Shown: positions 23-63,267, numbered from the stretch's first letter. The stretch: 64,000 nucleotides of DNA from a virus (IMGVR_UViG_3300029288_000152:10475-74474); one strand, 5' to 3'. Numbers and translations are program-made. The notes: generated by a model from the sequence alone, not told the origin.

Positions 23-259
23 ATGCCAGCCCCAGCACGGCTTAGAACCTTCAGGGTCAAGGATGATCTTCCCCAAGATGCCCGAGTGTGGCAGTTTGGG
101 CCAGGAGCGCGGAACCATCCTCGGGGAGATTTCTATCTAGGGGGCGCGTATAGCGGGATCTCGTACTTCCGCTCGATTCATGCCTTGAAGGAGACGTGGA
201 AGGATGGCGTGGAGGAAGTCATGCCGGATCCTGATCTGGAATTGGATGAGGGCATATGA
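23..259 (+). CDS. Small early protein with C-terminal tag (..PDPDLELDEGI)
   Basis: 78 aa; stop overlaps next ATG; paralog of 456..668. Confidence 0.85.
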   Translation: MPAPARLRTFRVKDDLPQDARVWQFGPGARNHPRGDFYLGGAYSGISYFRSIHALKETWKDGVEEVMPDPDLELDEGI

Positions 260-459
260 TAGAACAAGGACATCCACGAGTCTTTCACTGGGAGGATGAG
301 GAGTGGCAGGTCTGGCCTGATCATATCATCTGGTCCAAGATCGGATTGAATCCTCGCCCATCTCGATTTAAGTCATTTGATGCGTTCTGGTACGAGATGG
401 GACACTTGGTTCGAGAAGTGACTGTAGATCCGGATCTTGAACTCGACGAGGGTATATGA
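256..459 (+). CDS. Small early protein with C-terminal tag (..VDPDLELDEGI)
   Basis: 67 aa; ATGA coupling on both sides. Confidence 0.85.
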   Translation: MIEQGHPRVFHWEDEEWQVWPDHIIWSKIGLNPRPSRFKSFDAFWYEMGHLVREVTVDPDLELDEGI

Positions 460-668
460 TACCACGCACCTTCGAGGATCGGCACGGTGGGCGATGGATG
501 TATGGGGATGGGACTCGGAATCCTCAGGGGGACTACTACTATATGGGGGTGTACCGAGAAGCCGCTGGCCCATCTTTAGCGTACATGCTAGATCACATCC
601 AACGTCCTACTACAGGATTCAGGGAAGTCACCATCGATCCCGACCTGATGTTAGATGAGGGCGTATGA
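456..668 (+). CDS. Small early protein with C-terminal tag (..IDPDLMLDEGV)
   Basis: 70 aa; shares W-x-[FY]-G-x-G-x-RN..GD[FY]Y with 23..259. Confidence 0.85.
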   Translation: MIPRTFEDRHGGRWMYGDGTRNPQGDYYYMGVYREAAGPSLAYMLDHIQRPTTGFREVTIDPDLMLDEGV

Positions 669-922
669 CCAAATACGATGAGGACACGCTCGCTCGTCTC
701 CAGCATCGGGCCATCGAGCTGACGCAGGCCCGAGGCCATCTCCTGGGGCGATGGGAATCGGCCAAGAAGAAGCATGGGGTGGGGGCCAAGCGGGTCATTT
801 GTACCATCTGTGGGTTGGGCCTGACCATCATGCCCAAACATCAGTTTAAGAAGGGACATGTCCCGGCGATGAAGGGGGATGCCTTGTTTGCAGATTGCAC
901 AGAGATGACACAGAGGCATTGA
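665..922 (+). CDS. Hypothetical protein, untagged, CxxC
   Basis: 85 aa; coupled to upstream stop. Confidence 0.7.
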   Translation: MTKYDEDTLARLQHRAIELTQARGHLLGRWESAKKKHGVGAKRVICTICGLGLTIMPKHQFKKGHVPAMKGDALFADCTEMTQRH

Positions 923-923
923 A

Positions 924-1151
924 ATGATTCGATGGTATGTCCGGGGCATCAGTTCGGGATGGGCTGGGGTGGTGGAGTGGCATCCTGACCTCCTGGAGAA
1001 GAACTGCTACTACTTCCCTCGCTGGCCTGATCAGCGGGGTGTGACACGATTCTCGAAATCGGCCAGTGGGGTCCGGGATGCCGTGGAGTGTGGGGCATGG
1101 CGAGAGGCTCCAGAAATGTGTCCGGACCTGATGTTGGATGCGGGCATATGA
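924..1151 (+). CDS. Small early protein with C-terminal tag (..MCPDLMLDAGI)
   Basis: 75 aa; MIRWY..W.GV N-terminus like 1683..1919 and 1916..2128. Confidence 0.85.
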   Translation: MIRWYVRGISSGWAGVVEWHPDLLEKNCYYFPRWPDQRGVTRFSKSASGVRDAVECGAWREAPEMCPDLMLDAGI

Positions 1152-1360
1152 TTGCCAATCCTCGACTGGGATGGCGGTATTTTCAGTGTCCCTTCCCTGG
1201 TCCCTTTAGCCACTGGGCGTGGGATCCCGTTGATCAGAAGGGCTACTGGCTCAAGACCAGCACGGGCGAGTACTGTCATTCTTATCTCAGCGTAGATAGT
1301 TGGCAAAATGATGTCGAGGAGATCATCGATCAGGATCTCATGTTGGACGCAGGCATCTAG
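1148..1360 (+). CDS. Small early protein with C-terminal tag (..IDQDLMLDAGI)
   Basis: Start moved to ATG 1148 overlapping previous stop; 70 aa. Confidence 0.85.
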   Translation: MIANPRLGWRYFQCPFPGPFSHWAWDPVDQKGYWLKTSTGEYCHSYLSVDSWQNDVEEIIDQDLMLDAGI

Positions 1361-1369
1361 GAGGCGATT

Positions 1370-1681
1370 GTGCTACAGACATTCATTCGATCCGAGTGGA
1401 AGGAATCCCCCAAGGATGAGGTGGACATCAAGATGCTCACCCAAGCCATGGGTGAGGCCCATATCCGGCGCTACTTCCCCTACAAGGGCACCATGCTGGA
1501 GAATTGTCTCGCCTATGGCCTGAAGAAGGGGGATGCGGTGCCCTATGCCAGAACCCGGCATGAAGTCAATACCTTCCCGATTCAGATCCTCTCCATTGGC
1601 TTGCCGAAGGGGGCGAAGTGTGATAGCACCCCTCATGTCTTTGCCATGAAGAGCAGTGAGATTCAGGTCATGGAAGTGTGA
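1370..1681 (+). CDS. Hypothetical protein
   Basis: 103 aa; GTG start with GGAGG. Confidence 0.7.
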   Translation: MLQTFIRSEWKESPKDEVDIKMLTQAMGEAHIRRYFPYKGTMLENCLAYGLKKGDAVPYARTRHEVNTFPIQILSIGLPKGAKCDSTPHVFAMKSSEIQVMEV

Positions 1682-1682
1682 G

Positions 1683-1919
1683 ATGCCGAACATCCGCTAC
1701 TTTAAGGCTGGACAGGATGCCTTGTGGGACGGGGTGATTGAAGCGATCCCGCAACCAGATGGAGAGTATCGTTGCATCCAGTATGGGCACTGGCCGGATC
1801 GCTCTCCGGCGTATCTCCCATTTCCGGCCACAGCATACGAACTAGATGAGGCCGTCAGATCACGGAATTGGCAGGAAGCCATCGTTGATCCGGACTTACT
1901 CTTGGATGAGGGCATATGA
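1683..1919 (+). CDS. Small early protein with C-terminal tag (..VDPDLLLDEGI)
   Basis: Start moved to ATG 1683; 78 aa. Confidence 0.85.
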   Translation: MPNIRYFKAGQDALWDGVIEAIPQPDGEYRCIQYGHWPDRSPAYLPFPATAYELDEAVRSRNWQEAIVDPDLLLDEGI

Positions 1920-2128
1920 TCCGCACCTTCAGACCGGGACCGGATGCCTACTGGCGTGGGGTACTCACCGTGGATGATGATCCTCATGCTTCACGGTCAT
2001 ACCTACTCGATGGTGAGGTTATTCGCCATAGCCATAAGTCTCAGACTGAACTCATCCATCACAATGTCAGCACGAACTGGTGGATTGAAATCATTGACAA
2101 GGATCTCGAACTGGATGCAGGCATCTAG
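1916..2128 (+). CDS. Small early protein with C-terminal tag (..IDKDLELDAGI)
   Basis: 70 aa; ATGA coupling. Confidence 0.85.
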   Translation: MIRTFRPGPDAYWRGVLTVDDDPHASRSYLLDGEVIRHSHKSQTELIHHNVSTNWWIEIIDKDLELDAGI

Positions 2129-2145
2129 GCACTAGAGGAGTCATC

Positions 2146-2382
2146 ATGCGCTATGACTTTGAAGTCTACGCCGATTACGATGTGGTCTGGCACGGTGGGG
2201 AACTGCTCCCCCCTCGGGACAGCGCTCCCGATCACACCTGGGATACGATTGAGGTACTCCTCCCCCATGACCAAGAAGTCTACATCGTCACGCACCCGAA
2301 GCGGCGCTACCGGAAAGTCAACCATCTCTACTGGGCGAAACGCGCCGACCTCCCCATCCACCCCCACGATGAACCCAACTGA
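2146..2382 (+). CDS. Hypothetical protein; paralog of partial ORF at 63904
   Basis: 78 aa; GAGGAG SD; YDVVW..ELLPPRD motif. Confidence 0.75.
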   Translation: MRYDFEVYADYDVVWHGGELLPPRDSAPDHTWDTIEVLLPHDQEVYIVTHPKRRYRKVNHLYWAKRADLPIHPHDEPN

Positions 2383-2528
2383 GGCACCAATGGGCATGCC
2401 CTACGATATCGACGCGCTCACCTGCGCCGCACGGCAGAAGCTGCGGGCGCTGGGGGTGAACGATTCCTCCTTGAATGTCTACAAGATGTTATCCACGGTC
2501 AGAAAGGATCAACTAAGGAGAGCCTGGT

Positions 2529-2804
2529 ATGAGCAACGACACCCCGACGCCCAATCTGCTGGAATCGCCACCCCCGTTGAAGGAGTTGAGCGTGCTCGAC
2601 GTGCTGGACCGCATCCAGCGGGCGCTGGAACTCCTCGCCCACGATCAGGATCGCGTGCATGCCAAGCTGGACAAGATCCTCATGAAGGTGGATGATCTCG
2701 ATGAGACAGTCGATGACATCCTGCCCAAGATTGAGGAGATCCAGCAGGGGCTGGAAGACATGGTGTTTGATGATGCCTATCCGGGGAGTGGGGAGGAGGA
2801 TTGA
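2529..2804 (+). CDS. Coiled-coil acidic hypothetical protein
   Basis: 91 aa; heptad L/I/V pattern. Confidence 0.7.
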   Translation: MSNDTPTPNLLESPPPLKELSVLDVLDRIQRALELLAHDQDRVHAKLDKILMKVDDLDETVDDILPKIEEIQQGLEDMVFDDAYPGSGEED

Positions 2805-2805
2805 G

Positions 2806-3081
2806 ATGAAATGGTTTCCAACACACGAACCAGCAAAGCCGGTGGAGCCCCTAACTGCTGAGGAGGTTGCTGCCTGCCATCAATGCGGGCACATAGTTGT
2901 GAAGAACCGCATGCAGACCATTCCCCTCAATCGGAACTATTGGGGGCATCCTACCTACATCTACTTCTGTAACAACTGTCCAGTACATTTCCATGAAATG
3001 ACCAATGACTATTGCGGTCTTCGGTACTGGAAACGGGTAGAGGTGGATAAGTACGGCAAACCGCTTCACCTTGAGGAATGA
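2806..3081 (+). CDS. Zn-finger-like hypothetical protein
   Basis: Two CxxC pairs; GGAGGA SD. Confidence 0.7.
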   Translation: MKWFPTHEPAKPVEPLTAEEVAACHQCGHIVVKNRMQTIPLNRNYWGHPTYIYFCNNCPVHFHEMTNDYCGLRYWKRVEVDKYGKPLHLEE

Positions 3082-3148
3082 TGTGCGCGTGTCATCGCGC
3101 CTCACATGCCTGCCAGCAGTTCACGCCCGCAGAGGCGTGAACTGCGGT

Positions 3149-3181
3149 GTGTCACGGGTCCCTTTCTTATAGGGGTGACAC
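3149..3181. repeat. Inverted GTGTCAC..GTGACAC pair at a convergent gene junction
   Basis: GTGTCAC 3149-3155, GTGACAC 3175-3181; third copy at 3232-3238; same heptamer as the 54.7-55.4 kb field. Confidence 0.6.
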
Positions 3182-3190
3182 GACATGGCC

Positions 3191-4144: not shown

Positions 4145-4213
4145 GCGTCACCACTGAAAACCTCGTGAGCATTCGGAGTTCGCACAGAGTTTAAGCAAGG
4201 TGTGGTTGCGGGC

Positions 4214-4242
4214 ATCATACGCGACCCGGGCGAGATTGTCAA
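4214..4242 (-). promoter_or_regulatory. Sigma70-type promoter for the helicase
   Basis: TTGACA-17-TATGAT on - strand. Confidence 0.8.
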
Positions 4243-4281: not shown

Positions 4282-4572
4282 ATGGCATCGAACGTGGTCT
4301 ACATGGTGCGGGAGCGTGGGGGGCGGCATGGCCGCAAGGTGTGGCATGAGTATGTTGAGGTGGATCCCACCGCTCGCACGACGTATCGGGTGCAGGCCAA
4401 GTTGAAGCCGCGCAAGGTGATGCATCGGATCTACTGGCGGGGAAGTGCGTCATACGAAGCCCCACATGGGGAGACCAGCGATCAATGGCTGGTGCGGGCG
4501 ATGGAGAGCATGGCGGACTCGGGCTATCAGCCATGGTATCCCAAGTGGATGCAGATAGATGAGGGGATTTGA
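4282..4572 (+). CDS. Small protein with short tag (..MQIDEGI)
   Basis: ATG 4282 with GGAGG; 96 aa. Confidence 0.8.
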   Translation: MASNVVYMVRERGGRHGRKVWHEYVEVDPTARTTYRVQAKLKPRKVMHRIYWRGSASYEAPHGETSDQWLVRAMESMADSGYQPWYPKWMQIDEGI

Positions 4573-4573
4573 G

Positions 4574-4780
4574 ATGACTGGCAACTTTGGGCTAGAGACC
4601 GAGAACAGATGGTGGGTGGCACGGCAGGAACTTGGCGATGAGTACCATCGATCACTAGAAGCCTTTCTAGCCGAGTTGAGGAACTTGAGGTTCCCCGTCT
4701 ATACTGTCACAACAGGCATCCATGATAGCGTATGTGTAACGCTGGTGGATCCAGACCTGTATCTCGATGAGGGCATTTAG
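4574..4780 (+). CDS. Small protein with C-terminal tag (..VDPDLYLDEGI)
   Basis: ATG 4574; 68 aa. Confidence 0.85.
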   Translation: MTGNFGLETENRWWVARQELGDEYHRSLEAFLAELRNLRFPVYTVTTGIHDSVCVTLVDPDLYLDEGI

Positions 4781-4789: not shown

Positions 4790-4993
4790 ATGAAGACGTA
4801 CTTCCGCATCTACCACCGAGATGGTACGTATCGGATCGCCGCACAGCCATGGTTTTGGCCCTTCTACACATGGATCTCAACCCGTGACTACTCCTCGCTT
4901 GAGCGAGCAATTGTGGAGCGTGATGGCTACCAACGCCGATGCGTGCCTTGGAAGCCGGTGATCGAAGCCGAACCTTTGGATTCAGGCATTTGA
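4790..4993 (+). CDS. Small protein with short tag (..EPLDSGI)
   Basis: 67 aa; GGAGGA SD. Confidence 0.8.
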   Translation: MKTYFRIYHRDGTYRIAAQPWFWPFYTWISTRDYSSLERAIVERDGYQRRCVPWKPVIEAEPLDSGI

Positions 4994-7766: not shown

Positions 7767-8003
7767 GTGTATAAGATCATCATCGACAGACTGGCTGAGA
7801 ATCCCAACTATGCTGAAGAGCGAACGCGCTGGCTTAACAGTCAAGCACAGCAGCCGTATGGGATCACTGGGTATAACCCTGAACCGTTACGTATGGTTCC
7901 TGTCAGAGCACTAGAAATGGATCTCACAGAGGGCGAATTCAATGCGGTGAGACAAGCCGTACTGCAATTCATGGACACGGAACGGTTGGATGGAGGAATT
8001 TGA
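7767..8003 (+). CDS. Small protein with short tag (..ERLDGGI)
   Basis: GTG start after GAGGT; 78 aa. Confidence 0.7.
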   Translation: MYKIIIDRLAENPNYAEERTRWLNSQAQQPYGITGYNPEPLRMVPVRALEMDLTEGEFNAVRQAVLQFMDTERLDGGI

Positions 8004-13051: not shown

Positions 13052-13255
13052 ATGGGCAACGTGTTCATCAACTCCATCGTAGCTGGCAGGAGGGCTGGGA
13101 AGTCGTGTATGTTGATGTTACTGGAAGCAGATAGACGATATACCGATCAATGCACTCCCCAAAAACTGGCGGACTGGGCATCCGATTGGTGTCGCTATAG
13201 CATCATGCAGCAGCACTGCACCGATCCTGAACTGTACTTAGATGAAGGGATATAA
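13052..13255 (+). CDS. Small protein with C-terminal tag (..TDPELYLDEGI)
   Basis: 67 aa; GGGAGG SD. Confidence 0.8.
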   Translation: MGNVFINSIVAGRRAGKSCMLMLLEADRRYTDQCTPQKLADWASDWCRYSIMQQHCTDPELYLDEGI

Positions 13256-14899: not shown

Positions 14900-15433
14900 A
14901 TGTTTGAGACACTGCATCCGCCCTATAAGGTGATCTACGCCGATCCGCCATGGAACTATCGGGACAAGCATCGTGGGCATGGGGGAGCGGAGGATCATTA
15001 TGCCACGATGACCACCGATGAGACGTGCATGTTGGATGTAGAGGATCTGGTAGATCGGGATGCCCTGCTCTTCCTGTGGGCAACCTTTCCCAACCTGCCA
15101 GAAGCCCTACAGGTGATGCACTATTGGGGATTCACCTACAAGACCCAAGCCTTCACATGGATTAAAACCTATCCACGCAATGGCAAGCCCGTCATGGGAA
15201 TGGGATCCTACACTCGCAGCAATGCGGAGGTGTGCTTGCTCGGGTTGAAGGGCAGGAAATGGAATCTAGCGCGGAATGTGTCGAGCGTAATCATCGCCCC
15301 GAGGGGTCAGCATAGTGCCAAGCCACCTGAGGTCAGGGAAAGGATTGTGCAACTGTGTGGAGATGTGCCACGGGTGGAGCTGTTTGCGCGGGAGAGGGTG
15401 CCAGGATGGGATTGTTGGGGGCTTGAGGTGTAG
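14900..15433 (+). CDS. MT-A70 family adenine methyltransferase
   Basis: VIYADPPW, LFLWAT, HSAKP, ELFAR..GWDCWG. Confidence 0.92.
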   Translation: MFETLHPPYKVIYADPPWNYRDKHRGHGGAEDHYATMTTDETCMLDVEDLVDRDALLFLWATFPNLPEALQVMHYWGFTYKTQAFTWIKTYPRNGKPVMGMGSYTRSNAEVCLLGLKGRKWNLARNVSSVIIAPRGQHSAKPPEVRERIVQLCGDVPRVELFARERVPGWDCWGLEV

Positions 15434-15441: not shown

Positions 15442-15753
15442 ATGGTACCATATGAGTACTACGGCACAACTGGATTCACCGCTCAACAGCAGTACCAGCA
15501 GGCCATGAATGCGCAACAGACCCAATGGTATGGGATACCAGAGTGGGACAACGGGGCGACTCATGGCACATGGGCAGGGATAACCCGTGCCACCAACCCA
15601 TACTGGCAAACTTCTATAGGCAACATCGCGACAGATCCTAACACAGCACTGAATACCATCTGGTTCGTGAACCCCAGTTCCTGTGCGATCATTGACGGCA
15701 TTGCTACTCCTAAACCCATCGACCCCGATCTCTACATCGATGAGGGGATATGA
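15442..15753 (+). CDS. Low-complexity protein with C-terminal tag (..IDPDLYIDEGI)
   Basis: 103 aa; GGAGGT SD. Confidence 0.8.
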   Translation: MVPYEYYGTTGFTAQQQYQQAMNAQQTQWYGIPEWDNGATHGTWAGITRATNPYWQTSIGNIATDPNTALNTIWFVNPSSCAIIDGIATPKPIDPDLYIDEGI

Positions 15754-16037
15754 GAGCCATTCTTCACACCGTCTGTGGATGTACCAAAACCGTCACTATC
15801 AGCAGATTCGCTGATAGCATCAGCATCCCTTACACGGCTGGTACTCGTGTGGTGTACGATCCCACTGAACAGGGACCCCCGCCACCCCAAACTAGGAAAC
15901 GCATCTTCGAGTATCGGTCAGATGGGGCAGATGGGGCGTACTACTATGAACGACTCGATCCGCCTCCTGCACCATGTCCTACCTGCAAGCGTGCTCAGCA
16001 GTTACTGGACACCTACGGTCTTGATGAGGGTATTTAG
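15750..16037 (+). CDS. Small protein with short tag (..YGLDEGI)
   Basis: 95 aa; ATGA coupling. Confidence 0.8.
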   Translation: MRAILHTVCGCTKTVTISRFADSISIPYTAGTRVVYDPTEQGPPPPQTRKRIFEYRSDGADGAYYYERLDPPPAPCPTCKRAQQLLDTYGLDEGI

Positions 16038-16244
16038 ATGACTCCCACACCTAGAAGGTGGACTAACCAAGAAGTAGCCGTCGCTATCCAGTCTGAGGGA
16101 GACCTTGGCTACGTGGTTCAGCACTACTTGCCGCTAGACCGTATTGCAGACACGAAGTTGCGAGACTTGTGCATCCGTGCCAAGACCTGCCTTGACCAGA
16201 TAGAGGAAATGTTGCAGGATGAACTTGATGACGAGGGCATATGA
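16038..16244 (+). CDS. Small protein with short tag (..ELDDEGI)
   Basis: 68 aa. Confidence 0.8.
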   Translation: MTPTPRRWTNQEVAVAIQSEGDLGYVVQHYLPLDRIADTKLRDLCIRAKTCLDQIEEMLQDELDDEGI

Positions 16245-16543: not shown

Positions 16544-16812
16544 TGCTGATCCTTGACACACATATCCATCGGTGTCGAGCCTGTCAGGATGAGTGGATCT
16601 GCAGCATGCCTGATTGCACACAGGATGATATCTGTGATCAGTGTGATCATGCAGCTTTTGAAGATTGGATGATGGCCAATGATTACTTTACGGGAAGTAG
16701 ACGAACTGCTGGGGCTGTACTACGAACGCATCATGACCGACATGGCCTCGGAGGAGTGGAGCGGGAAGGATCTTCTAAGACAGGATCAACTCGACCAACA
16801 AGTGATCACTGA
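16540..16812 (+). CDS. Cys-rich hypothetical protein
   Basis: 3 prime half overlaps 16679..16843 in another frame. Confidence 0.5.
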   Translation: MMLILDTHIHRCRACQDEWICSMPDCTQDDICDQCDHAAFEDWMMANDYFTGSRRTAGAVLRTHHDRHGLGGVEREGSSKTGSTRPTSDH

Positions 16813-16843
16813 TCCTGAACTATTCCTAGATGAGGGGATCTAA
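16679..16843 (+). CDS. 54-aa protein with C-terminal tag (..TDPELFLDEGI), absent from ORF track
   Basis: MITLREVDELLGLYYERIMTDMASEEWSGKDLLRQDQLDQQVITDPELFLDEGI, read by hand. Confidence 0.75.
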   Translation: MITLREVDELLGLYYERIMTDMASEEWSGKDLLRQDQLDQQVITDPELFLDEGI

Positions 16844-17440
16844 TTGTCAAAACTTATAGACTTAACCGGACACAAATTTGGGACGCTGACTGTTCTAAAA
16901 CGTGCAACCAACAACAAGTGGCGACAAGTTAGGTGGAGGTGTCAGTGTAGCTGTGGCAGGCAGATTGTAACTGAGCGTGCTTCGCTAATGCGAGGTTACA
17001 CCAAGTCATGTGGTTGTCAGTTGCGAGCATCAATACGCAAAGCCCTTTCAACGCATGGACATAGCCATGCAGTTAATGGCAATCCTACCTCTGAGTACCG
17101 CTCATGGACTAGCATGCGAAATCGTTGTTCAAATCCCAAAGGAGACAAACACCTCCTTTACAAGGACCGAGGGATAAAAGTATGTGATCGTTGGCAGCAC
17201 AGCTTTGAAACGTTTCTAAAGGACATGGGACCAAGACCTTCAAAAGGATTTACACTGGATCGCATAGATAACGATGGAAACTATGAGCCATCCAATTGTA
17301 GATGGGCAACCAAAAAAGAGCAATCGGCTAACAGACGGTCACCCACTAAAATGCAGCAGGAGATGAACACCTTAAGGCATAAGCTAGAACAGTACGAAAC
17401 TAAGTTTGGGAAGCTAGAGGAGGAGCCTCTTGCTATCTAA
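16844..17440 (+). CDS. HNH-family homing endonuclease
   Basis: DLTG.KFG.LTV, CxCxCG, SCGC, RGIKVCDRW, TLDRIDNDGNYEPSNCRWAT. Confidence 0.9.
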   Translation: MSKLIDLTGHKFGTLTVLKRATNNKWRQVRWRCQCSCGRQIVTERASLMRGYTKSCGCQLRASIRKALSTHGHSHAVNGNPTSEYRSWTSMRNRCSNPKGDKHLLYKDRGIKVCDRWQHSFETFLKDMGPRPSKGFTLDRIDNDGNYEPSNCRWATKKEQSANRRSPTKMQQEMNTLRHKLEQYETKFGKLEEEPLAI

Positions 17441-20189
17441 ACCACCAACCTGCATGGGGTGCCCATTATTTGAACCGCCTCTAGGTAAGCATAGTGGATT
17501 CTCTTGTCCTGATGGAGAGGGCAAATCAGGTGTTCTGGTAGTTGCTGAGGCCCTAGGAGAAGTAGAGGAACAAACTGGGGTACCGCTCGTAGGCAAGAGT
17601 GGCTACTACTTTTTTAGCCAACTCAAACGCATTGACCTTGACCGAGACGACTTCAGACTATTTAATGCAGTCGCTTGTAGACCACCCAACAATAAGCTGA
17701 TCCCTCCCTATCGGGATGTAGCCATTGCTCACTGTGCTCCCAATCTGGATGCCACCATCCATGACATGCAGGAGCGGTGTCGGGCAACTGGCAAGCAACT
17801 GACGATCTTAACCTTGGGCGATACAGCGCTCAAGCGTGTGCTACGGATCACCGATCCTCGGCTGACCCTCACCCAACACTTGAGTTATGTGTTCTGGAGT
17901 GAGGAGTACCGGGCGTTTGTGATCCCTTCCTATCATCCCGCCTTCTTGATGCGGGGCTCGAACCACCTTGTACCAGTTTTACAATTTGCCGCCAAGCGAG
18001 CGGTGGAGATTGCCGCCAATGGGTTCACTTATCACACTCCCACATACTTACGAGATCCTGATCCGGCGACATTTTCCCAGTGGTGTCGAGACTACAGAGA
18101 ATCTGTACAGCATAGTGGTGCCACCTATCTCGCGTTCGACATCGAAACCCCTCGCAAGCAAGGGAAGGATGAGGAAGAAGTCGCACGGGAAGAGGACGAT
18201 GATTACACCATCCTCCGCTGCTCATTCGCGTACAAAGCGGGAGAAGCGGTCAGCGTCCCATGGCAGGCCCCATACCTTCCATATCTAGAGGAGTTGTTTG
18301 CGTCTCCGGGCACGAAACTGGTCTGGAACGCCAACTATGACGTACCGCGCATCACTGCCCAGATGCCGATCAATGGAGACATCTGGGATGGCATGCTCAT
18401 GTGGCATGTCCTCAACTCTGCTCTTCCCAAGGGATTGGGCTTCGTCGCGCCCTTCTACTGCCCTGACATGCCGATGTGGAAGCACACCTCGAAGGAGGAT
18501 CCAGCAGGGTATAACTGTCAAGATAGTGATGCCCTGTTGCGGTGTGTCTTAGGGATCAAACCCAGCTTGGAAAAGAATCGCCTCTGGCCTGTCTTTGATC
18601 GCCATGTTGTGCAGTTGAATCGCGTCCTCAGCTACATGTCAGCCAAGGGTGTTCTCCGGGATGAGGCGATGCGGCGGGATGCCGAGAGTCAGCTGAGTAG
18701 ACTGCTCAATGATGTCGAGGCCCAGATGGAAGCATCTGTGCCACAGGAGGCGAGGAGGCTTCATCCGAAGAATGGGTATAAGAAAGCGCCCAAAGACACA
18801 ACCGGCATGGTCCAAGCGGGTTTTCAAGTGCCCATCAAATCTTGCAGCCGATGTGGACTGGACAACCCCACAAAGAGGCATTTTGCTGGTGTCCGAGTGC
18901 CCAAACGGGGAGCAGCCAAACCCCCCAATCCATGTGAAGGTGCTGAAACGGTCACTGTTGTCAAGACAGACATCCGGTGGGCCAAGCCCCTTGAGTTCAA
19001 AGTCAGCAAGGTTGGGTTGCAAGGGTATCAGAAAGCGCTCAAGCACCAAGCGATCATCAACCGCAAGGAGAACAGGGTCACGTTCGATGAGACGGCGATC
19101 AGGCAGCTGATCAAACAGCACCCTAAAGATCCCCTCTATCCCCTCATCCTGACACACCGAGATTACCAGCGGCTGTTGAGTACCTATATTGGCGTGACCC
19201 AAGACGATGGCACCATCCGGGGAGGATTGCGGCTAAGTACTGGTGGACGCATTTCTCCCCAATTCACGCACAATCCTAGCACGTTGAGGTTGGCCTGCCA
19301 GAACCCCAACATGCAGAATCTACCGAGGGCCAGTGATGACGTTCTCACTAGCATGGTTCGGAATCTCATTGTTGCTGCTGATGGCTGCTGTCTTTTGGAG
19401 CGTGACTACAGCGGAATTGAAGCAGTGCTTGTGGGTTACTTCGCTGGCTCTGCTGATTACATGCGTCTTTCTCGGCTTGGGATACATGCTTACATGGCTT
19501 CTCATGTCCTTGGGCGTCCCGCTGACTTGAAGTGGTCGGATGCCGACTTGCGGGCGTACTTCAAGGAAATCAAGAACGCACCAGATCAGGCCACCAAGGA
19601 CATCTACACGGGCTGTAAGCGAGCCGTGCATCTCAGCGGCTATGGTGGCACCCCCAAGAAGATGCACATCGCGGAGCCGGACGTGTTCAAGACCATGAAG
19701 GATGCCGAACGGTTGCAGGGCATCTACTTCGATCTCTGCCCCTATGTCAAGAAGTGGCAGTGGAGCACCCAGTTACAGGCCGAACGGGATGGATTCCTGA
19801 GGAATCCCTTTGGGTATGTCCATCGCTTCTATCACATCTTCAGCTACAAGAAGGAGGCTGGAGAGTGGAAACGAAAGCAGGGTGAAGATGCTAACAAAGC
19901 GCTCGCGTTTCTGCCACAGTCCACAGCAGCGGGGATCATCAAGGAGGCGATGCTTAGGCTCTTTTTCACCCATTTCGAGGCAGCCGGACGGTACCTTCGC
20001 TTGCAAGTACATGATAGTTTGGTACTGGAAGTTCCGCAATCCGAAGCAGATCGGATTGATCAAGTGCTAAAGACTGAGATGGAGCGTCCTGTGCCGGAGT
20101 TGAGGTTGCCTACCAGCTACGGGATAGGTGACTACTTGAGTATCAAGACTGATCTGAAATCTGGCCCTCGCTGGGGCCAAATGTCATAG
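17430..20189 (+). CDS. polA: Family A DNA polymerase with N-terminal uracil-DNA-glycosylase-like domain (SPO1-like architecture)
   Basis: UDG: CxxC, AEALG.VE, CRPPNN, YHPA; exonuclease AFDIET, WNANYD; polymerase DYSGIE, KRAVHLSGYG, QVHDS. Confidence 0.92.
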   Translation: MLSKPPTCMGCPLFEPPLGKHSGFSCPDGEGKSGVLVVAEALGEVEEQTGVPLVGKSGYYFFSQLKRIDLDRDDFRLFNAVACRPPNNKLIPPYRDVAIAHCAPNLDATIHDMQERCRATGKQLTILTLGDTALKRVLRITDPRLTLTQHLSYVFWSEEYRAFVIPSYHPAFLMRGSNHLVPVLQFAAKRAVEIAANGFTYHTPTYLRDPDPATFSQWCRDYRESVQHSGATYLAFDIETPRKQGKDEEEVAREEDDDYTILRCSFAYKAGEAVSVPWQAPYLPYLEELFASPGTKLVWNANYDVPRITAQMPINGDIWDGMLMWHVLNSALPKGLGFVAPFYCPDMPMWKHTSKEDPAGYNCQDSDALLRCVLGIKPSLEKNRLWPVFDRHVVQLNRVLSYMSAKGVLRDEAMRRDAESQLSRLLNDVEAQMEASVPQEARRLHPKNGYKKAPKDTTGMVQAGFQVPIKSCSRCGLDNPTKRHFAGVRVPKRGAAKPPNPCEGAETVTVVKTDIRWAKPLEFKVSKVGLQGYQKALKHQAIINRKENRVTFDETAIRQLIKQHPKDPLYPLILTHRDYQRLLSTYIGVTQDDGTIRGGLRLSTGGRISPQFTHNPSTLRLACQNPNMQNLPRASDDVLTSMVRNLIVAADGCCLLERDYSGIEAVLVGYFAGSADYMRLSRLGIHAYMASHVLGRPADLKWSDADLRAYFKEIKNAPDQATKDIYTGCKRAVHLSGYGGTPKKMHIAEPDVFKTMKDAERLQGIYFDLCPYVKKWQWSTQLQAERDGFLRNPFGYVHRFYHIFSYKKEAGEWKRKQGEDANKALAFLPQSTAAGIIKEAMLRLFFTHFEAAGRYLRLQVHDSLVLEVPQSEADRIDQVLKTEMERPVPELRLPTSYGIGDYLSIKTDLKSGPRWGQMS

Positions 20190-36959: not shown

Positions 36960-38324
36960 TCACGTGATCACATAACCGATAAAGCCTCGAAGGTTGGTAA
37001 AGGTATCGACCTCCGTGAAGGTCGTGCCATCCGTTGAACGCAGGATAATGCCATCGCTGTCTGGATCGGTGGCTCCGGCTCCATCCGTCTCGGCAATGAC
37101 CAAGTAGACTGCTGAACTGTCAGGCGCAAGGATTCCCTGTCCCAGTAAGTGCTGTGTGCGACTAGCTCCCAGTGTAGCCAATGTATAGACAGTGCTCCAC
37201 GCCGAACCAGTGAATTTCCTCACTGTGATTCGGCTGGCCGTAGCCGCTGAGTCATCATAGCGCAGGGCAAAGAGGTTGGCCCCAAACACCGTCAAGCCTG
37301 AGTAGTGCGAGTAGCCCGCACCCGTGTTCCCCCCGTTGTCACTGACGGTATAGGCTCCTGCCGAGGATCGCACGTAACAGCGGACAGGACTCCCAATCGT
37401 GTCCACCCGGCATCCCACATAGAGCAAGCCCTTATAGCTCGCCATGCTGGAGACCACTTGATTGGCCGTCAAGGTCTCATCATCGGTCCATGAGGTATCC
37501 ACCCCCGGACGGATGTAGTAGACATGGCCAGATTGCGATCCGGCATTGAGATAGGATGTCCCTGCCCAGAGCGAACCGGCATGAGAGGTCAGTGCCCAGA
37601 CCACGCCTCCACTAAACTCCGTGGCCGCCACCGCTGCCGTGTAGCCAATCTGCTTGATGGCTCCCGTGACCGGATCGAACTCAAAGACCCGGCTATTGAG
37701 CAGGGGAGCCGCTCCCCCATCGAGCGTGGAGAAGTAGAGCTTGTTATCGTGCAAGCACATGGCGATGATGGCTTGCGCCGTCGTGGTGGCTCCCACGGCA
37801 ATGTTCTTAGGGGCATAGCCTACAACGGAATCAGTCGTCCCATCCCAGCAATGGATAGTGGGATCTGAGTAGCTCGCCGTGGGGTAGACAACGTAATCAC
37901 TGCCCGCATAGTAGAGCTTGTTCTTGAAGCTCACCATCGCAGCGTTGCTGATCACGCCCGTGGTCTGGTTGCTGGATGCGAACTGCGACTTGACAGGAGC
38001 CGTCGTGTTGCTGGCCCATGTCGTACCATTGGTCGATGTGCGCCACAGGGTGGACTTACCCGTGTCAATGCCAGCATAGAGCGTGACGGTCGGCGTATAG
38101 GCAAAGGGGAGATTGATCGCGCCCTTGACTGTCCCTCCACTCGCAAAGGCGGTCGAGTTCAGCTTGGCTAGTCCATCGCGCTTCCGCAGCGTTCCGGCCT
38201 CACCCAGATCGTCTGCGACGGCATTCTGGGCCTTGGTCAGTTCCTGAGGACTCAGATGGACGGCGCTCTTGACGACGTTGACACCCTTCGTGCCCAAGCC
38301 GTAGAGATCGATTTTCCCGCCCAT
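36960..38324 (-). CDS. Beta-propeller tail protein
   Basis: GVN..ELTKAQNA..G.LRKRDG N-terminus; repeated S/H-x-x-x-L-Y blades. Confidence 0.7.
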   Translation of the reverse strand: MGGKIDLYGLGTKGVNVVKSAVHLSPQELTKAQNAVADDLGEAGTLRKRDGLAKLNSTAFASGGTVKGAINLPFAYTPTVTLYAGIDTGKSTLWRTSTNGTTWASNTTAPVKSQFASSNQTTGVISNAAMVSFKNKLYYAGSDYVVYPTASYSDPTIHCWDGTTDSVVGYAPKNIAVGATTTAQAIIAMCLHDNKLYFSTLDGGAAPLLNSRVFEFDPVTGAIKQIGYTAAVAATEFSGGVVWALTSHAGSLWAGTSYLNAGSQSGHVYYIRPGVDTSWTDDETLTANQVVSSMASYKGLLYVGCRVDTIGSPVRCYVRSSAGAYTVSDNGGNTGAGYSHYSGLTVFGANLFALRYDDSAATASRITVRKFTGSAWSTVYTLATLGASRTQHLLGQGILAPDSSAVYLVIAETDGAGATDPDSDGIILRSTDGTTFTEVDTFTNLRGFIGYVIT

Positions 38325-59500: not shown

Positions 59501-60343
59501 CTCATCATGGTGTTAGCACAGTTGGGATTTGCACTCATGGTGTCAGGAGTCATCCAGTAATGGCATCCTTCAGGGAAGCAGTGCAGGTGATTGATCAGGT
59601 CAAGCAGTTCCACATGCTGATCCTGTTCAGTCATAGTGGGGATGCAATGACACGCCATGTGGCCTTGTGGCGATTGCATCATGCTCAACAAGCCTGGTCG
59701 AGCTTGACTCATCTCATGGAGGCATCGCGTGGCGCAACCGTCAAGCGGATTGAGGGTGCGGATTCCAAGCTACGGGATGTGGCGAGAGTTCATCAAGAGC
59801 AGACGGGGAGGGATGCTACCGGTCACGTCTGAGCATGGCAACATCCAGACGCGCTGTATCTGCTGTCGCATTCCCGTGGACATCAGTGCAGCGTTGCCGA
59901 TCAGGATTGGGAGTCTGGTCAAGTTTGATGAGGATGAGGATGTGATCGATCCCAAAGGGGATGTGATCACCGTGACGAGGACAAGAGTGTTTCCTGCCAG
60001 TGTCAAGGGGATGGGTTGTGAGTTCTGTGCAGGATTGCAGATGAAGGCGGATGGATTAGAAGGCGTCAGGCGTGAGAAGTATCAACCACAACACCAGGAT
60101 GTCAGTGAAACGATCATCCAAGTGAATCATGAGGGCAAGACCTACGAGCAGAGGGGAGAGAAGTGGTATGATGTGCAGACGCATATCTCCGTCCCTGTGC
60201 TGGTCGGTCATGTCTTGAGGAAGATTGAGGAGCGGGTGGAGCATCAGGAATCCCGTAAAGTGTTGATAGGCAAGGGGCTAGACAAGAGGACAGCGTTCGT
60301 GGATGTGCGGGAGCAGGTGTTGGGGATGAGGAGTCATCAGTGA
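56590..60343 (+). other. Run of about 15 small early ORFs of unknown function (e.g. 56590..56853, 56864..57064, 57068..57268, 57588..57779, 57769..58266 with C-terminal HTH-like region, 58278..58577, 58581..58844, 58832..59173, 59182..59424, 59426..59560, 59560..59832, 59729..60343)
   Basis: Co-oriented, closely packed, mostly with GGAG SD; several Cys-rich or hydrophobic. Confidence 0.7.
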
Positions 60344-60567
60344 CTGTAACGTACTGCTACATCTGCAATAGAGAGATGGAGCATCGATGGGCCTGTGATG
60401 CCTGTGTCCTACAGTTTCACATGAATCATACGGACTGGCAGCGGTTCCTCAGCGAGCATTGGGAGGAACGCTATAGTCCATCGGCTCCTGTTCCATCCTG
60501 GGTGCAGCAGAAATACCCGCACTGTCACTGCACTGATCCTGATCTGATGTTGGATGAGGGCATCTGA
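60340..60567 (+). CDS. Zn-finger small protein with C-terminal tag (..TDPDLMLDEGI)
   Basis: CYIC..CDAC; 75 aa. Confidence 0.85.
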   Translation: MTVTYCYICNREMEHRWACDACVLQFHMNHTDWQRFLSEHWEERYSPSAPVPSWVQQKYPHCHCTDPDLMLDEGI

Positions 60568-60815
60568 TGTCACGACTCTATGATGATCCTGCGGCTGAGG
60601 GAGAAGTGCGATACTGCTATGGGTGTAATCAACCTACTACCCGTACATGGATCTGTCCCACATGTGATGATGGTCCTGGGGCACTCCTGAGCCGATTGCT
60701 GCACGTCATCCGCGACCAGGGAGAGCCGGTGAGGACGAGTCCTACTGATTCCTACTTTGGGTATAAGCCTGATCCCATCTGTGATCCGGCGCTGGTCTTG
60801 GATGCGGGGATTTGA
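60567..60815 (+). CDS. Zn-finger small protein with C-terminal tag (..CDPALVLDAGI)
   Basis: CYGC..CPTC; paralog of previous ORF. Confidence 0.85.
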   Translation: MSRLYDDPAAEGEVRYCYGCNQPTTRTWICPTCDDGPGALLSRLLHVIRDQGEPVRTSPTDSYFGYKPDPICDPALVLDAGI

Positions 60816-60824
60816 GAGGAGATC

Positions 60825-61007
60825 ATGATGAAGACCGTACTAGTGGCTTTCACGTTTTTCTGCGTAGTCATGTTTGCTGTGAGTTGTGGAGCGGCTATCT
60901 ACTTTGCAATATATGAACGAGCCACACTGACAGCTCTTTCTGTGGCTGGTGCCGTTTTGTGGGGAGTGAGTGTAGGGATAAACAGCATCACGCTCACACG
61001 GTTCTGA
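60825..61007 (+). CDS. Small 2-TM membrane protein
   Basis: 60 aa, hydrophobic. Confidence 0.65.
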   Translation: MMKTVLVAFTFFCVVMFAVSCGAAIYFAIYERATLTALSVAGAVLWGVSVGINSITLTRF

Positions 61008-61019
61008 GAGGAGTCCAAC

Positions 61020-61184
61020 ATGTTTATGGAGCTGGGCAAGCAGGATCGCAAGTGTGATGAGTGTCATACTGAGGATGGCATCGTCAACTTGGGTGGCGTA
61101 GTGCTCTGCAAGGCGTGCGCTGACAAGTACAAGGATCATCTCTTTACACAAGCCGTGAGGAACCAGTTTGACAAGACCAAGTGA
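61020..61184 (+). CDS. 54-aa Zn-finger protein
   Basis: CDEC..CKAC; GAGGAG SD. Confidence 0.65.
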   Translation: MFMELGKQDRKCDECHTEDGIVNLGGVVLCKACADKYKDHLFTQAVRNQFDKTK

Positions 61185-61196
61185 GAGGAGGCTATC

Positions 61197-61424
61197 ATGG
61201 CGTGGGGATCATTCCTGATGGGATTCATGCTGGGATTGGTGTTCAACGTATTCGCTGTCTACCTCTGTCGAGGATTGGTCGTCCTTGCTCTCCAGCGCAA
61301 GGAAACCAAGCAAGTCGAGGAGTTCAACAAGCTCATCAAAGAGGGTGAGGCGGCGATGGAGAAGATGCTGCTGGACAAGAGGAGTCAGCGGGCGGCAACG
61401 ATAAGTAGGGCGAGTGTGAACTGA
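61197..61424 (+). CDS. Single-TM + coiled-coil protein
   Basis: 75 aa; GAGGAGG SD. Confidence 0.7.
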   Translation: MAWGSFLMGFMLGLVFNVFAVYLCRGLVVLALQRKETKQVEEFNKLIKEGEAAMEKMLLDKRSQRAATISRASVN

Positions 61425-61436
61425 CTGAGGTGTGAG

Positions 61437-61625
61437 ATGCCACGGTTTATTATCACAGTTCGAACTCAGCGGCTAGTGGAAGAGGAGTATGCCATCGACG
61501 CGGACACCAAGGAAGATGCCATCGAAGCCTTCCATGAGGGAGATGGCTATTTGCAGGATGAGTGCATCATCGACTGCACCGATGGCCCTACCATTATCAA
61601 GGTTGAGGATTGCGGGGGAGCATGA
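61437..61625 (+). CDS. Untagged paralog of 63049..63267
   Basis: YAIDADTKEDAIEAFHEGDG. Confidence 0.8.
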   Translation: MPRFIITVRTQRLVEEEYAIDADTKEDAIEAFHEGDGYLQDECIIDCTDGPTIIKVEDCGGA

Positions 61626-61786
61626 AAGCCATTCCCCAGTGTCATCGGATTGAGTTCAGTGAGATGGAGAGGGAGGATCTGGTGGATGAGTTGGAGGATG
61701 TTTTGATCCACTCAGATCAGCCTGACACGCATCTGCTAGAGATGTGGAAACTGCTGAATACCTTGAGAGAGTGTGACAACTCATGA
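61622..61786 (+). CDS. 54-aa acidic protein
   Basis: ATGA coupling on both sides. Confidence 0.6.
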   Translation: MKAIPQCHRIEFSEMEREDLVDELEDVLIHSDQPDTHLLEMWKLLNTLRECDNS

Positions 61787-61980
61787 TCCAACCTTACCTC
61801 TTCAGAGATGCCCTCAGGATTGAGTGCTCGCTCTGTGACGACATCATCCAACAGGGTGATGGAGAGCATGCGCCCCTTGCTGGGGGCATCTGTGAGGAGT
61901 GTGAGAGGATTGAACAGGAGTTGAGGGAGGCGATCCATGACTCCAAGAGTGATGATGGGTCACATTCGTCAGCTGTGTAA
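61783..61980 (+). CDS. Zn-finger small protein
   Basis: CSLC..CEEC. Confidence 0.65.
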   Translation: MIQPYLFRDALRIECSLCDDIIQQGDGEHAPLAGGICEECERIEQELREAIHDSKSDDGSHSSAV

Positions 61981-62335
61981 GTATGCGGGGGGACACGTGG
62001 AGATCGGGAGTGAGTTGGCAATGGAACTGGGAGAGCGCAGCAATGCCTGCTGCGATCATGACACCCGCACCATCCATCTCCGGAATGCCTGTCAATCCGA
62101 GGCGATGTATGCATCAGCCTTGCATGAGGTGGGGCATCTCTATGGACGGCCTCCAGATCCGATGGACTTCATGATGGCTGACATACTTGGCTTCTGTTCC
62201 CAGCGCCTGATCGCGGAAGAACGGAAGGCTTGGGTCTGGGCACAGGATCATGCCTTGATGTGGACAGACGAGATGGAAGCCCGGAAGCGGATGTGCCTGA
62301 AAACCTACGAGCAGGGACAACTTGGAGATGAGTGA
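61937..62335 (+). CDS. HExxH zinc-metallopeptidase-like protein (ImmA/IrrE-like)
   Basis: SALHEVGHL..EERKAW. Confidence 0.75.
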   Translation: MTPRVMMGHIRQLCKYAGGHVEIGSELAMELGERSNACCDHDTRTIHLRNACQSEAMYASALHEVGHLYGRPPDPMDFMMADILGFCSQRLIAEERKAWVWAQDHALMWTDEMEARKRMCLKTYEQGQLGDE

Positions 62336-63039
62336 TGAGTATCCGCGATAAAGCTATCATCGCAGCCTGTGTGGGAGTGTTCACCATCTGCTTCTACTTG
62401 GGATTCAGGCTGGGATGGCTGATAGGGACGGTGCTGTGGTCACGTTAGCCTTAGAGCATCTCCGGCAGCATCTAGGTGTGGGAGATGTGCCTCCGACCAC
62501 CTTCTCCTATGCGGATCTGGAGATGCGGACGCTCAAGCCTAAAGTCATCTATGCTGAGAAGGCGGCACCCATGAGTAATCCCCCATCCCTTGGAGCCTGT
62601 ACCAGGTGGGAATGGGCACATCCGTTCAATCGGTGGGCAGTGATGGGTAGGCATAAGGTGCGGATCAAGCCTCCAGGATTCTGGGAGTATGTGTGGGAAA
62701 GGTATTGAGATGTCTACTCATACCACAACCTGTGTCATCTGTGGCGCAAAGTGTTACTGTTGCAATGATGCACATGCCTTAGGATGTGGTGGGGATCATG
62801 GCGAGGGTGGGTGCAATAACCCACCTTACATTGAGTTCTGCTCCCTTGCACATGCGCTTGAACTCCAACGCCGGTTAGTTGAGGCTATTGCTAACTACCA
62901 TCAAGTCGTTGTTGAGGGATGAGCGATGGCCTGGATTCTCCTCCTCATCGGCTCCATCTGGTGGTTCTTGGGCAGGATTGAGCCTGAGACATGGAAGGGA
63001 TTGAAGCATGTACGGACGTACGAATCCGTACCATCGTAA
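62335..63039 (+). other. Small early ORFs: TM peptide 62335..62448, 62415..62708 (start uncertain), Cys-rich 62710..62922, TM peptide 62926..63039
   Basis: Co-oriented short ORFs read by hand. Confidence 0.55.
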
Positions 63040-63048
63040 GGATTCCCT

Positions 63049-63267
63049 ATGAAACGCTGGAACATTGAGACATCCTCCCGGCAGTACGTGTATCGCACGT
63101 ACAGTGTTGATGCGGAGACGAAGGAGGAAGCCCTGCGGCTGTTTCATGCTGGAGAGGGCGACTGTGGAGAGGCCGACTATGGCGATGAGGATGATGAAAC
63201 GGTAGATACCATCACGATGGAGTGCGATCTCCTTCCCGAGGATCAACAGCTCGATGAAGGGATCTGA
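63049..63267 (+). CDS. Acidic small protein with short tag (..EDQQLDEGI)
   Basis: 72 aa. Confidence 0.8.
   Translation: MKRWNIETSSRQYVYRTYSVDAETKEEALRLFHAGEGDCGEADYGDEDDETVDTITMECDLLPEDQQLDEGI

Follow-up and report, generated by a model that had tools for sequence, protein, structure and literature searches.

A genome-specific C-terminal peptide shared by unrelated small early proteins across a phage clade: a candidate docking signal

The window analysed here is a stretch of 64,000 nt from the 74-kb genome of an uncultured phage. It opens with the 3' end of a ThiF/E1-like gene (1..45, plus strand; genome 9680-10519; Pfam ThiF 49.3 bits, cut-off 28.1), and genes for E2-like, JAB, and Ubl-like proteins are located directly upstream of the window. 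The E2-like protein matched Prok-E2_D with 29.8 bits (cut-off 25) and contains Cys152. The JAB protein scored 19.1 bits with Prok-JAB, under the cut-off of 25, but the residues H283-S-H...S294..D297 are present, and the catalytic motif is intact at all loci. The 69-aa Ubl-like protein has a conserved R-x-T-G-G-x-K-G end and a predicted beta-beta-alpha-beta-beta structure (pLDDT 83.5), for which Foldseek returned MoaD, ubiquitin-like, and Raf-RBD domains at E values of only 0.2-1.2. The cassette resembles the PRTRC-type, or class 6, Ubl-E2-JAB-E1 operons known from mobile elements (PMC1779556; NCBIfam PRTRC_A, PRTRC_B, PRTRC_ThiF), being likewise a compact mobile-element operon with these components, but its NCBIfam scores were all far under the cut-offs.

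About 20 small early proteins encoded in the window and the upstream part of the genome share one ten-residue C-terminal peptide, referred to here as the tag. The pattern D-x-G-[IV]-stop closes 19 plus-strand ORFs of the window and one ORF upstream of it (genome 1583-1810, end QLDEGI), 20 in total. The 19 ORFs and their ends, as listed in the initial annotation, were all confirmed. The first tagged ORF (23..259, family B, end DPDLELDEGI) overlaps the E1 stop with its start and is followed, on the plus strand like all genes listed here, by ORFs at 256..459 (DPDLELDEGI) and 456..668 (family B, DPDLMLDEGV). Two untagged genes lie within this array. p85 (665..922) encodes a small, basic, Cys/His-containing protein, and p103 (1370..1681) a small conserved one; both occur only in tag-bearing relatives and are candidate readers of the tag. 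Between them are tagged ORFs at 924..1151 (family A, CPDLMLDAGI) and 1148..1360 (DQDLMLDAGI, with an own Shine-Dalgarno (SD) sequence on the next gene). Two further family A members follow p103, at 1683..1919 (DPDLLLDEGI) and 1916..2128 (DKDLELDAGI), the latter predicted by AF2 as a small beta/alpha domain that ends in a disordered tail of 10 residues. A second group consists of ORFs at 4282..4572 (short form, MQIDEGI), 4574..4780 (DPDLYLDEGI, Glu being retained despite an own SD on the next gene), and 4790..4993 (short form, PLDSGI, with 160 nt downstream free of genes). Single tagged ORFs are found at 7767..8003 (short form, RLDGGI) and 13052..13255 (DPELYLDEGI). Others occur at 15442..15753 (Q/N-rich body, DPDLYIDEGI), 15750..16037 (short form, GLDEGI), 16038..16244 (short form, LDDEGI), and 16679..16843 (DPELFLDEGI). 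Near the far end of the window are two members of the Cys-rich family D at 60340..60567 (DPDLMLDEGI) and 60567..60815 (DPALVLDAGI), and an ORF at 63049..63267 (short form, QQLDEGI) with an untagged paralog at 61437..61625 (BLASTP 41% over 37 aa, E 2e-10). No array of tagged small proteins has been described for any PRTRC or class 6 operon.

From the composition of the plus-strand proteome, 0.06 of 105 genes would be expected to end in D-x-G-[IV] by chance, compared with the 20 seen. Across the three plus frames, the string LD[EA]GI was found 13 times, with a stop directly after it in 13/13 cases, and a scan of the minus strand of the window gave no occurrence. The complete list of other D-x-G-[IV]-stop matches comprises a shadow ORF in antisense orientation (37524-37868, MDSGI) and two frames between stops that are shorter than 30 aa. 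The tag was found at the very C-terminus only. Tagged genes are scattered across the whole early region, in early and replication operons, and 12 of the 20 are far from the Ubl-E2-JAB-E1 cassette. The structural module is on the opposite strand, and a scan of the window and genome found no tag on structural genes, as had been noted before. Lysine is scarce in the carriers, at 2.5%, whereas small proteins without the tag have 5.1% (p = 1e-4); stretches poor in lysine have been described for proteins working beside Lys-directed conjugation (PMC10169902, PMC10665810).

Thirteen tags have the long form, and the tags together use every codon for Leu (six), Gly (four), and Ile (three) and each of the three stops, as the initial annotation had reported. 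Its claim of scrambled codons stands for positions -9 to -4 (position 0 being the last residue), where codon identity equals the expectation from genome usage; the tag is therefore not explained by gene conversion or by a DNA repeat, and selection acts on the peptide, as had been proposed. The claim does not extend to positions -3, -2, and -1, where identity exceeds expectation (139 vs. 102, 69 vs. 51, and 71 vs. 51, respectively), or to the rare Ile codon ATA, which is over-used in tags and forms ATATGA overlaps, so that the last four codons are not freely scrambled. These codons double as the SD and start overlap of the next gene, an influence that the annotation had underrated. This role does not account for the tag. 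The idea that the letters are just an SD (GAGG) and a start overlap, the peptide being a by-product, is largely refuted and very improbable. The codon excess at -3 to -1 and the ATA usage would fit it, as would the share of GAG among the Glu codons of tags (82% vs. 65% genome-wide), the preference for GGR in relatives, the GAGG still held by VDEVF tags (GAT GAG GTN), and the position of most non-Glu tags of this genome upstream of genes with their own SD. However, E-G is anchored to the stop and not to the next start, to which the spacing is not fixed (4 nt, 7 nt, or >10 nt). Glu is present in 21/28 uncoupled and 49/55 coupled tags (p = 0.12), the ends of untagged coupled genes are ordinary, and conservation at -9 to -4 and at 0 is that of the residues, with no nucleotide-level conservation at -9 to -4. 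Relatives likewise keep the peptide pattern and not GAGG alone, contrary to the outcome that the annotation had named as refuting.

Without the tail, carrier families A, B, C, and D show no homology to each other (hhalign probability ≤3.5%), and each of them bears the tag version of the phage genome that encodes it. Family C ends with LPEGF in L002, L047, and L048 and with VDEGL in L051. BLASTP among the carriers of this genome revealed three paralog pairs only. The earlier description of the bodies as mostly unrelated is thus right in that several families are unrelated by hhalign, but several carriers are distant paralogs. Common descent of all carriers from one fast-evolving paralogous family, with the tail as its slowest part, would find its best material in these pairs and in family A, which is represented three times in this genome and by many members in relatives. 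It is scarcely credible, given that profile-profile similarity among the four families is absent, that the tail varies by genome within one family, and that one paralog pair consists of a tagged and an untagged member. This last pair (63049-63267 and 61437-61625) shows the tag to be a detachable module.

A search of 1.84 billion proteins gave 136 representatives of family A, all of them tagged at the end (136/136), with Gly(-1) in 131/136, a hydrophobic last residue in 133/136, and none stopping at ..EG. The AF2 model of this family (pLDDT 78) has a folded body with the order b-b-b-b-a-b and disordered residues 60-70. Foldseek against the PDB yielded nothing at E ≤ 0.001, and in a VIA-wide search the best Z was 4.8, with no Ubl in the top rows. 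As modelled, family A does not appear to be beta-grasp-like.

The tag is a property of the whole phage clade. Tagged small ORFs were present in 17/17 distinct relatives with E1 at least 36% identical and room downstream, and no tags were found at loci with E1 identity ≤34%. The tagged ORFs begin on or shortly behind the E1 stop in most relatives and downstream of p85 and p103 in L002, L047, and L048. The cassette, p85, and p103 are kept in every tag-bearing locus extending that far, and p85 and p103 are confined to tag-bearing loci (70 loci compared). More distant E1 cassettes lack tags, so tags are not a requirement of the cassette. Each relative has its own version of the tag: VDEGL, LDEGI, MDEGL, VAEGL, VGEGL, VDEVF, LPEGF, or VPEGL. 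Asp(-3) and Gly(-1), previously given as invariant, are so in this genome but not in the clade: Asp(-3) is its most variable tag position (D/P/A), and Gly(-1), present in 78/81 tags of the loci examined, is Val in 3/3 tags of L040, the closest E1 relative. Among approximately 215 tags, the last residue was never missing and none ended at Gly. The tag type is homoplastic on the E1 tree. In the E1 and JAB alignments, the split between terminal Ile and terminal Leu was matched by no column more closely than were random splits, and the E1 signal for Asp vs. Pro at -3 was weak (5 columns for L051 vs. 1 per comparable taxon). Genome-specific tags on unrelated families, together with scrambled codons at -9 to -4, point to selection at the peptide level and to a co-evolving reader. 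We found no described family or paper matching the tag, in accordance with the initial annotation.

Several known systems offer alternatives. The tail could address the host, docking the carriers on one host hub or acting as a C-terminal degron by which a host protease times their turnover. An acidic tail with a hydrophobic end and a required free carboxylate resembles SSB tails, T7 gp2.5/gp4, class III PDZ ligands, and C-degrons, and the spread of tagged genes over the whole early region is consistent with such a signal. The presence of one narrow variant per genome, with close relatives differing at the end (I/L/F), at -3 (D/P/A), and at -1 (G/V), makes it unlikely, because conserved host hub pockets would more likely permit mixed tags within one genome. 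A pro-modifier has a somewhat smaller chance of being the answer: JAB would trim the last residue, E1 adenylate the exposed Gly, and E2 receive it, so that the small proteins would be conjugated via the tail to targets and would amount to some 20 different 'ubiquitins' that lack a beta-grasp fold. The E1, E2, and JAB genes are indeed adjacent, with the JAB motif intact everywhere and arrays beginning at the E1 stop; Gly(-1) is frequent in both tag sets, and lysine-poor bodies would escape self-conjugation. Without its last residue, the tail L-x-L-x-E-G has the spacing of L-R-L-R-G-G in ubiquitin. Ubiquitin and Ubl precursors show the same hydrophobic-x-hydrophobic-x-x-Gly spacing and one residue past Gly, whereas the modelled tag family appears to be without a beta-grasp body and the tag has a bulky Glu at -2 in place of Gly75. 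Ubiquitin precursors have arbitrary caps, whereas that of the tag is never absent, is hydrophobic, and varies with the genome. A precedent is type II CBASS (Cap2 E1-E2, Cap3 JAB), where cGAS, having no beta-grasp fold, is conjugated by Cap2 via a conserved C-terminal Gly or Ala, this conservation being limited to operons with Cap2 and Cap3 (PMC10097602). Here too, an apparently non-beta-grasp protein lies beside E1/E2/JAB homologs, with only its C-terminus conserved and tied to the enzymes. However, CBASS has a single substrate with Gly or Ala last, and Gly-to-Val abolishes conjugation (PMC10097602), whereas here approximately 20 carriers have a penultimate Gly and an obligatory hydrophobic end. 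A Gly that is last or exposable is not found in all members, as L040 has Val in 3/3 tags, and the cassette owns a separate GG-tailed Ubl-like protein. The earlier suggestion of something akin to a ubiquitin-like pro-form, in which a Gly becomes exposed once the terminal Ile is removed, is weakened by the same three observations: the Val of L040, the ever-present cap, and the cassette's own Ubl.

In another, improbable reading, the tail would be a cargo signal comparable to the capsid targeting sequence of T4 or to the C-terminal peptides by which encapsulins load their cargo, and the small proteins would be packed into the procapsid and co-injected. Homologs of internal virion proteins are encoded by the phage, and [LVM]-x-E is similar to the site cut by the T4 prohead protease. 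T4 internal proteins provide a parallel, since they too are small, diverse, and rapidly evolving; they act against host restriction endonucleases in defence, share one destination, and have only a targeting sequence of about 10 residues in common (PMC3012670). The T4 signal, however, is N-terminal, removed by the prohead protease, and late, whereas the tag is genome-specific and at the extreme C-terminus of early and replication genes that start beside the Ubl cassette, on the strand opposite to the structural module. The structural genes are all tagless, and a scan of structural proteins did not reveal a prohead protease.

The reading that we favour, with a probability of roughly 0.4, is that the tag is a docking peptide whose partner most likely is phage-encoded and belongs to the adjacent cassette or is p85 or p103. 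The proposal of a strictly C-terminal, docking-type signal in the initial annotation is supported. The end of the tag fits the PDZ class III pattern (E-G-hydrophobic). It shares with the tails of bacterial SSB and T7 gp2.5/gp4 and with class III PDZ ligands ([DE]-x-hydrophobic-COOH) an acidic, flexible character and the kind of ending in which a pocket reads the last hydrophobic residue and the free carboxylate. Those tails are limited to one or two proteins and remain conserved over wide host ranges, whereas the tag is on about 20 proteins and differs between related phages. A PDZ or OB reader was not found, and a Pfam scan of about 35 phage proteins detected no PDZ domain. The co-occurrence with the cassette is perhaps plain phylogeny, because the tag-bearing phages all belong to one clade. 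F-box and other cullin-RING substrate receptors similarly combine a shared docking element with variable target-binding bodies and are lysine-poor (PMC10665810), but their docking elements are folded 40-residue domains of eukaryotes, and the likeness is an analogy only.

As a docking peptide, the tag would be a short linear element, (D-P-[DE]-[LM]-x)-[LVM]-x-E-G-[ILF]-COOH, on a flexible tail, carried by small early proteins that contain few lysines and come from at least four families unrelated to each other. The free C-terminus of the tag would be read by one partner with a specificity differing from phage to phage, probably a product of the operon preceding the arrays (Ubl-like, E2-like, JAB, E1-like) or the untagged p85 or p103. 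The variable bodies may in this way be brought to the partner machinery as adaptors, substrates, or cargo.

The virus record is a single sequence of 74,474 bp, and the window corresponds to its bases 10475–74474. Translation of the 19 plus-strand ORFs that the initial annotation had described as sharing a C-terminal peptide of about ten residues, (DPDLx)LD[EA]GI-stop, reproduced every reported ending, and a 20th tagged ORF was found upstream of the window (genome 1583–1810). The motif LD[EA]GI occurred 13 times in plus-strand frames, always (13/13) immediately 5′ of a stop codon, and was not found on the minus strand. Twenty genes ended in D-x-G-[IV] vs. 0.06 expected from the composition of the 105 plus-strand genes; the pattern otherwise matched only two very short frames and a shadow ORF. 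The latter, a 114-aa plus-strand frame (window 37524–37868) ending in MDSGI, is antisense to a structural gene and was rejected as a chance look-alike. The tagged carriers were 54–103 aa long and were located in the early/replication half of the genome, which also encodes a PolA-UDG fusion, an MT-A70 methylase, a PD-(D/E)XK protein, and RtcB. The fusion is a 919-aa family A DNA polymerase with an N-terminal uracil-DNA-glycosylase-superfamily domain (window 17430–20189), and the MT-A70 family methyltransferase gene (window 14900–15433) lies directly 5′ of three consecutive tagged ORFs (15442–16244). The structural module (terminase, portal, major head protein, and internal virion proteins) is encoded on the strand opposite to the tagged genes.

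The phage has no close relative among GenBank phages: megablast of 20 kb gave no match, and the major capsid protein had one match, at 37% identity. No match in IMG/VR was obtained with the exact DNA pattern for DPDLxLDEGI or with a single-protein scan for the ThiF/E1-like protein (E1) encoded just upstream of the window, and a scan of GTDB genomes yielded just two loci, both distant, from Oscillospiraceae and without tags. Metagenomes contained 178 E1 homologs, 45 of which were aligned (alignment A1) and used to recover 36 loci from IMG/VR and 32 from metagenomes, with contigs named "Hain" accounting for many of the metagenome loci. Every locus with an E1 at least 36% identical and with room downstream carried small co-oriented ORFs sharing one end. 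They mostly began at or just past the E1 stop codon; in L002, L047, and L048 they were positioned after the genes for p85 and p103, two untagged small proteins. The tag was thus confirmed beyond one genome, across a clade. Its end varied by lineage: LDEGI in the studied genome, L042, and L043; VDEGL in L038, L039, L051, and L054; MDEGL in L044; VAEGL in L045/L046; VGEGL in L041; VDEVF in L040; LPEGF in L002, L047, L048, and L050; and VPEGL in L052 and L053. L002 contained 16 exact LPEGF-stop sites and none of the reversed pattern. Loci with an E1 at most 34% identical had nothing comparable, and a search for other tag types near more distant E1 genes found none. Two jumbo-phage contigs with a distant E1 carry four tandem minus-strand frames of 56–66 aa ending in ..S[LF]VSA (L035:15003–15525 and L036:14907–15429); these, which look like either tandem paralogs or a repeat's shadow, have no relation to the LDEGI-type tag.

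Pure translational coupling would attribute the shared ending to the Shine-Dalgarno (SD) sequence and start codon of the next gene. Codon usage in the 20 tags was partly consistent with such a role. At positions −9 to −4 (0 being the last residue), same-residue pairs shared codons 174 times vs. 157 expected from genome usage, close to the scrambling of codons claimed initially; at −3, −2, and −1 codon sharing exceeded this expectation, and the claim did not hold there or at the last position, where ATA, a rare codon genome-wide (4% of Ile codons), was frequent, as it creates ATATGA overlaps. The final four codons thus have a second role, in the SD and start of the following gene. This dual coding leaves the tag itself unexplained. 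Overlaps in relatives read TGATG or TAATG, so that GAGG lies 7 nt, not 4 nt, from the start, and in many cases the next gene is more than 10 nt off and has its own SD. Glu(−2) was retained in 21 of 28 uncoupled tags vs. 49 of 55 coupled ones (p = 0.12), and the position of the E-G pair was anchored to the stop codon and not to the following start. SD and overlap are thus insufficient as the cause, and pure coupling is essentially excluded; the core reading of the initial annotation, a docking tag acting at the peptide level, was supported.

Approximately 85 tagged proteins grouped into recurring families. Without their last 10 residues, families A, B, C, and D showed no profile–profile similarity (probability ≤3.5%), in agreement with the earlier description of the bodies as mostly unrelated, and pure common descent of all carriers is essentially excluded. 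Within each family the tail was of the type of the genome carrying the gene: family A proteins ended in LDEGI/LDAGI, VDEGL, MDEGL, VAEGL, or LPEGF depending on the genome, and family C proteins in LPEGF in L002, L047, and L048 and in VDEGL in L051. Since L051 is nested within the LPEGF/VPEGL clade of the E1 tree, tag type is homoplastic. Given the scrambled codons, gene conversion is not the source of this concerted pattern, which implies that the genes, each on its own, tracked a tag reader specific to their genome. A word-index search with the family A profile recovered 9 proteins only, and an exhaustive profile search recovered 136 representatives (65–92 aa), all of them tagged at the extreme end. 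Gly(−1) was present in 131/136, Glu(−2) in 112/136, and a hydrophobic last residue in 133/136; position −3 was variable (D 67, P 38, then A, E, S, and Q), and no representative ended at ..EG. One pair of paralogs in the window comprises an untagged (61437–61625) and a tagged (63049–63267) member, which indicates that the tail is a detachable module. AF2 modelled family A (pLDDT 78) as a small domain of four strands, a helix, and a strand, followed by about ten disordered residues; fold searches with this model found no clear structural relative. Tagged carriers contained less Lys than untagged small plus-strand proteins (2.5% vs. 5.1%, p = 1e-4) and were Trp- and Tyr-rich, nearly twofold over untagged small proteins. 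The tagged proteins of relatives followed the same trend.

That the tag is narrow and specific to each genome speaks for a reader that evolves fast. The window is adjoined on its upstream side by E2-like (Prok-E2_D), JAB, and E1 genes, with the E1 stop lying inside the first tagged ORF. These three genes are preceded by the gene for a 69-aa ubiquitin-like (Ubl-like) protein with a beta-beta-alpha-beta-beta model and an R-x-T-G-G-x-K-G end in 4/4 orthologs. Together with an acidic Cys-containing protein, these genes form a cassette that is conserved in all loci extending far enough to include it. Likewise conserved are p85 (window 665–922) and p103 (1370–1681), which are untagged, embedded in the arrays, and restricted to tag-bearing loci. 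The cassette proteins, p85, and p103 are the obvious candidate readers. Complex prediction for two E1 copies with ATP and the tagged protein 1683–1919 gave a score of 0.00, which is evidence neither way. No E1 or JAB alignment column followed terminal Ile vs. Leu above random splits. Asp vs. Pro at −3 was followed by 5 E1 columns for L051 vs. 0–1 for others, a signal made uninformative by the same pattern for L050 in p85 and p103; overall, none of the covariation tests, whether on E1, JAB, p85, or p103, outperformed null splits. L040 is the sole lineage with Val at −1 (3/3 tags, VDEVF; L040:1900–2617), and its JAB (L040:1–1026) is the only one to lack one residue in the H-x-H...S-x-x-D loop; this may be reader–tag co-variation, but it is a single case.

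Several features of these loci were recorded separately. The cassette begins 50 nt downstream of an early-region gene for an RtcB-family RNA ligase (L001:4846–5976; Pfam E 2.5e-108). The Cys-containing protein heading it in the studied phage (L001:6024–6770) has a long Asp/Glu tail ending in ..GAEEG; the tail of the L002 ortholog (L002:5402–5971) ends in ..EDPGF, close to the LPEGF tag of L002, and the L050 and L043 orthologs have no Asp/Glu tail. The p103 orthologs (L038, L039, L042, L043, L047, L048, and L002) have a conserved C-terminus of their own, E-[AV]-[QE]-[VLI]-[MIVL]-E-V or ..EILPVE, distinct from the tag.

A more speculative reading (probability about 0.3) is that a ubiquitin-like conjugation machine encoded by the phage is served by the tagged proteins as a library of interchangeable members, either modifiers or substrate adaptors. 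The tail, specific to each genome, would be the handle gripped by E1, E2, or JAB (or by p85/p103), the roughly 20 fast-evolving bodies would be host-binding modules, and one enzyme set could covalently mark many host targets or neutralise them. Recognition of the tag by a host hub or as a degron would match the acidic-hydrophobic C-terminal chemistry but is a poor match to the genome-specific uniformity of the tag, and we regard it as unlikely. Still less probable is one particular version of a cassette-linked tag, in which removal of the last residue would expose Gly as in pro-ubiquitin. Ubiquitin ends in L-R-L-R-G-G; the tail L-x-L-x-E-G is spaced alike, and its Gly is nearly invariant. There is also a precedent in CBASS, where an E1-E2 enzyme conjugates a non-beta-grasp protein via its conserved C-terminus and a Gly-to-Val change abolishes conjugation (PMC10097602). 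However, L040 has precisely Val at −1, the residue capping Gly is obligatory, hydrophobic, and lineage-specific, and the cassette already contains a GG-tailed Ubl-like protein. A capsid-cargo signal like the T4 CTS (PMC3012670) would fit poorly with the early-operon location of the tagged genes and is very improbable.

Pfam, PHROGs, NCBIfam, and the ESM Atlas contained no family for the tagged proteins, p85, p103, or the Ubl-like or acidic protein. Literature searches on the motif, on PRTRC with phage, and on phage-encoded Ubl systems found no description of tag arrays, and the parts seen of the classic survey of prokaryotic Ubl-E1-E2-JAB operons do not mention them. Arrays of unrelated small phage proteins with a co-evolving C-terminal peptide are thus undescribed in the family libraries, structure libraries, and literature searched. 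The genome-specific co-variation of the peptide is a natural specificity code open to tag-swap experiments, and the portable 10-residue tag could become a tool. If one short peptide routes a fifth of the phage's early genes to a single partner, it would provide a sequence rule for an effector arsenal among orphan genes, a rule already obeyed by 136 clusters of family A, and a direct biochemical handle, since pull-down should reveal the partner. The literature searched gave no answer as to the targets of phage-borne ubiquitin-like cassettes, and a partner within the adjacent Ubl-E2-JAB-E1 set would be the first clue to them. If the tagged proteins are indeed a library served by this machine, they would represent a functional viral analogue, in bacteria, of F-box-type receptor families or multi-ubiquitin systems.
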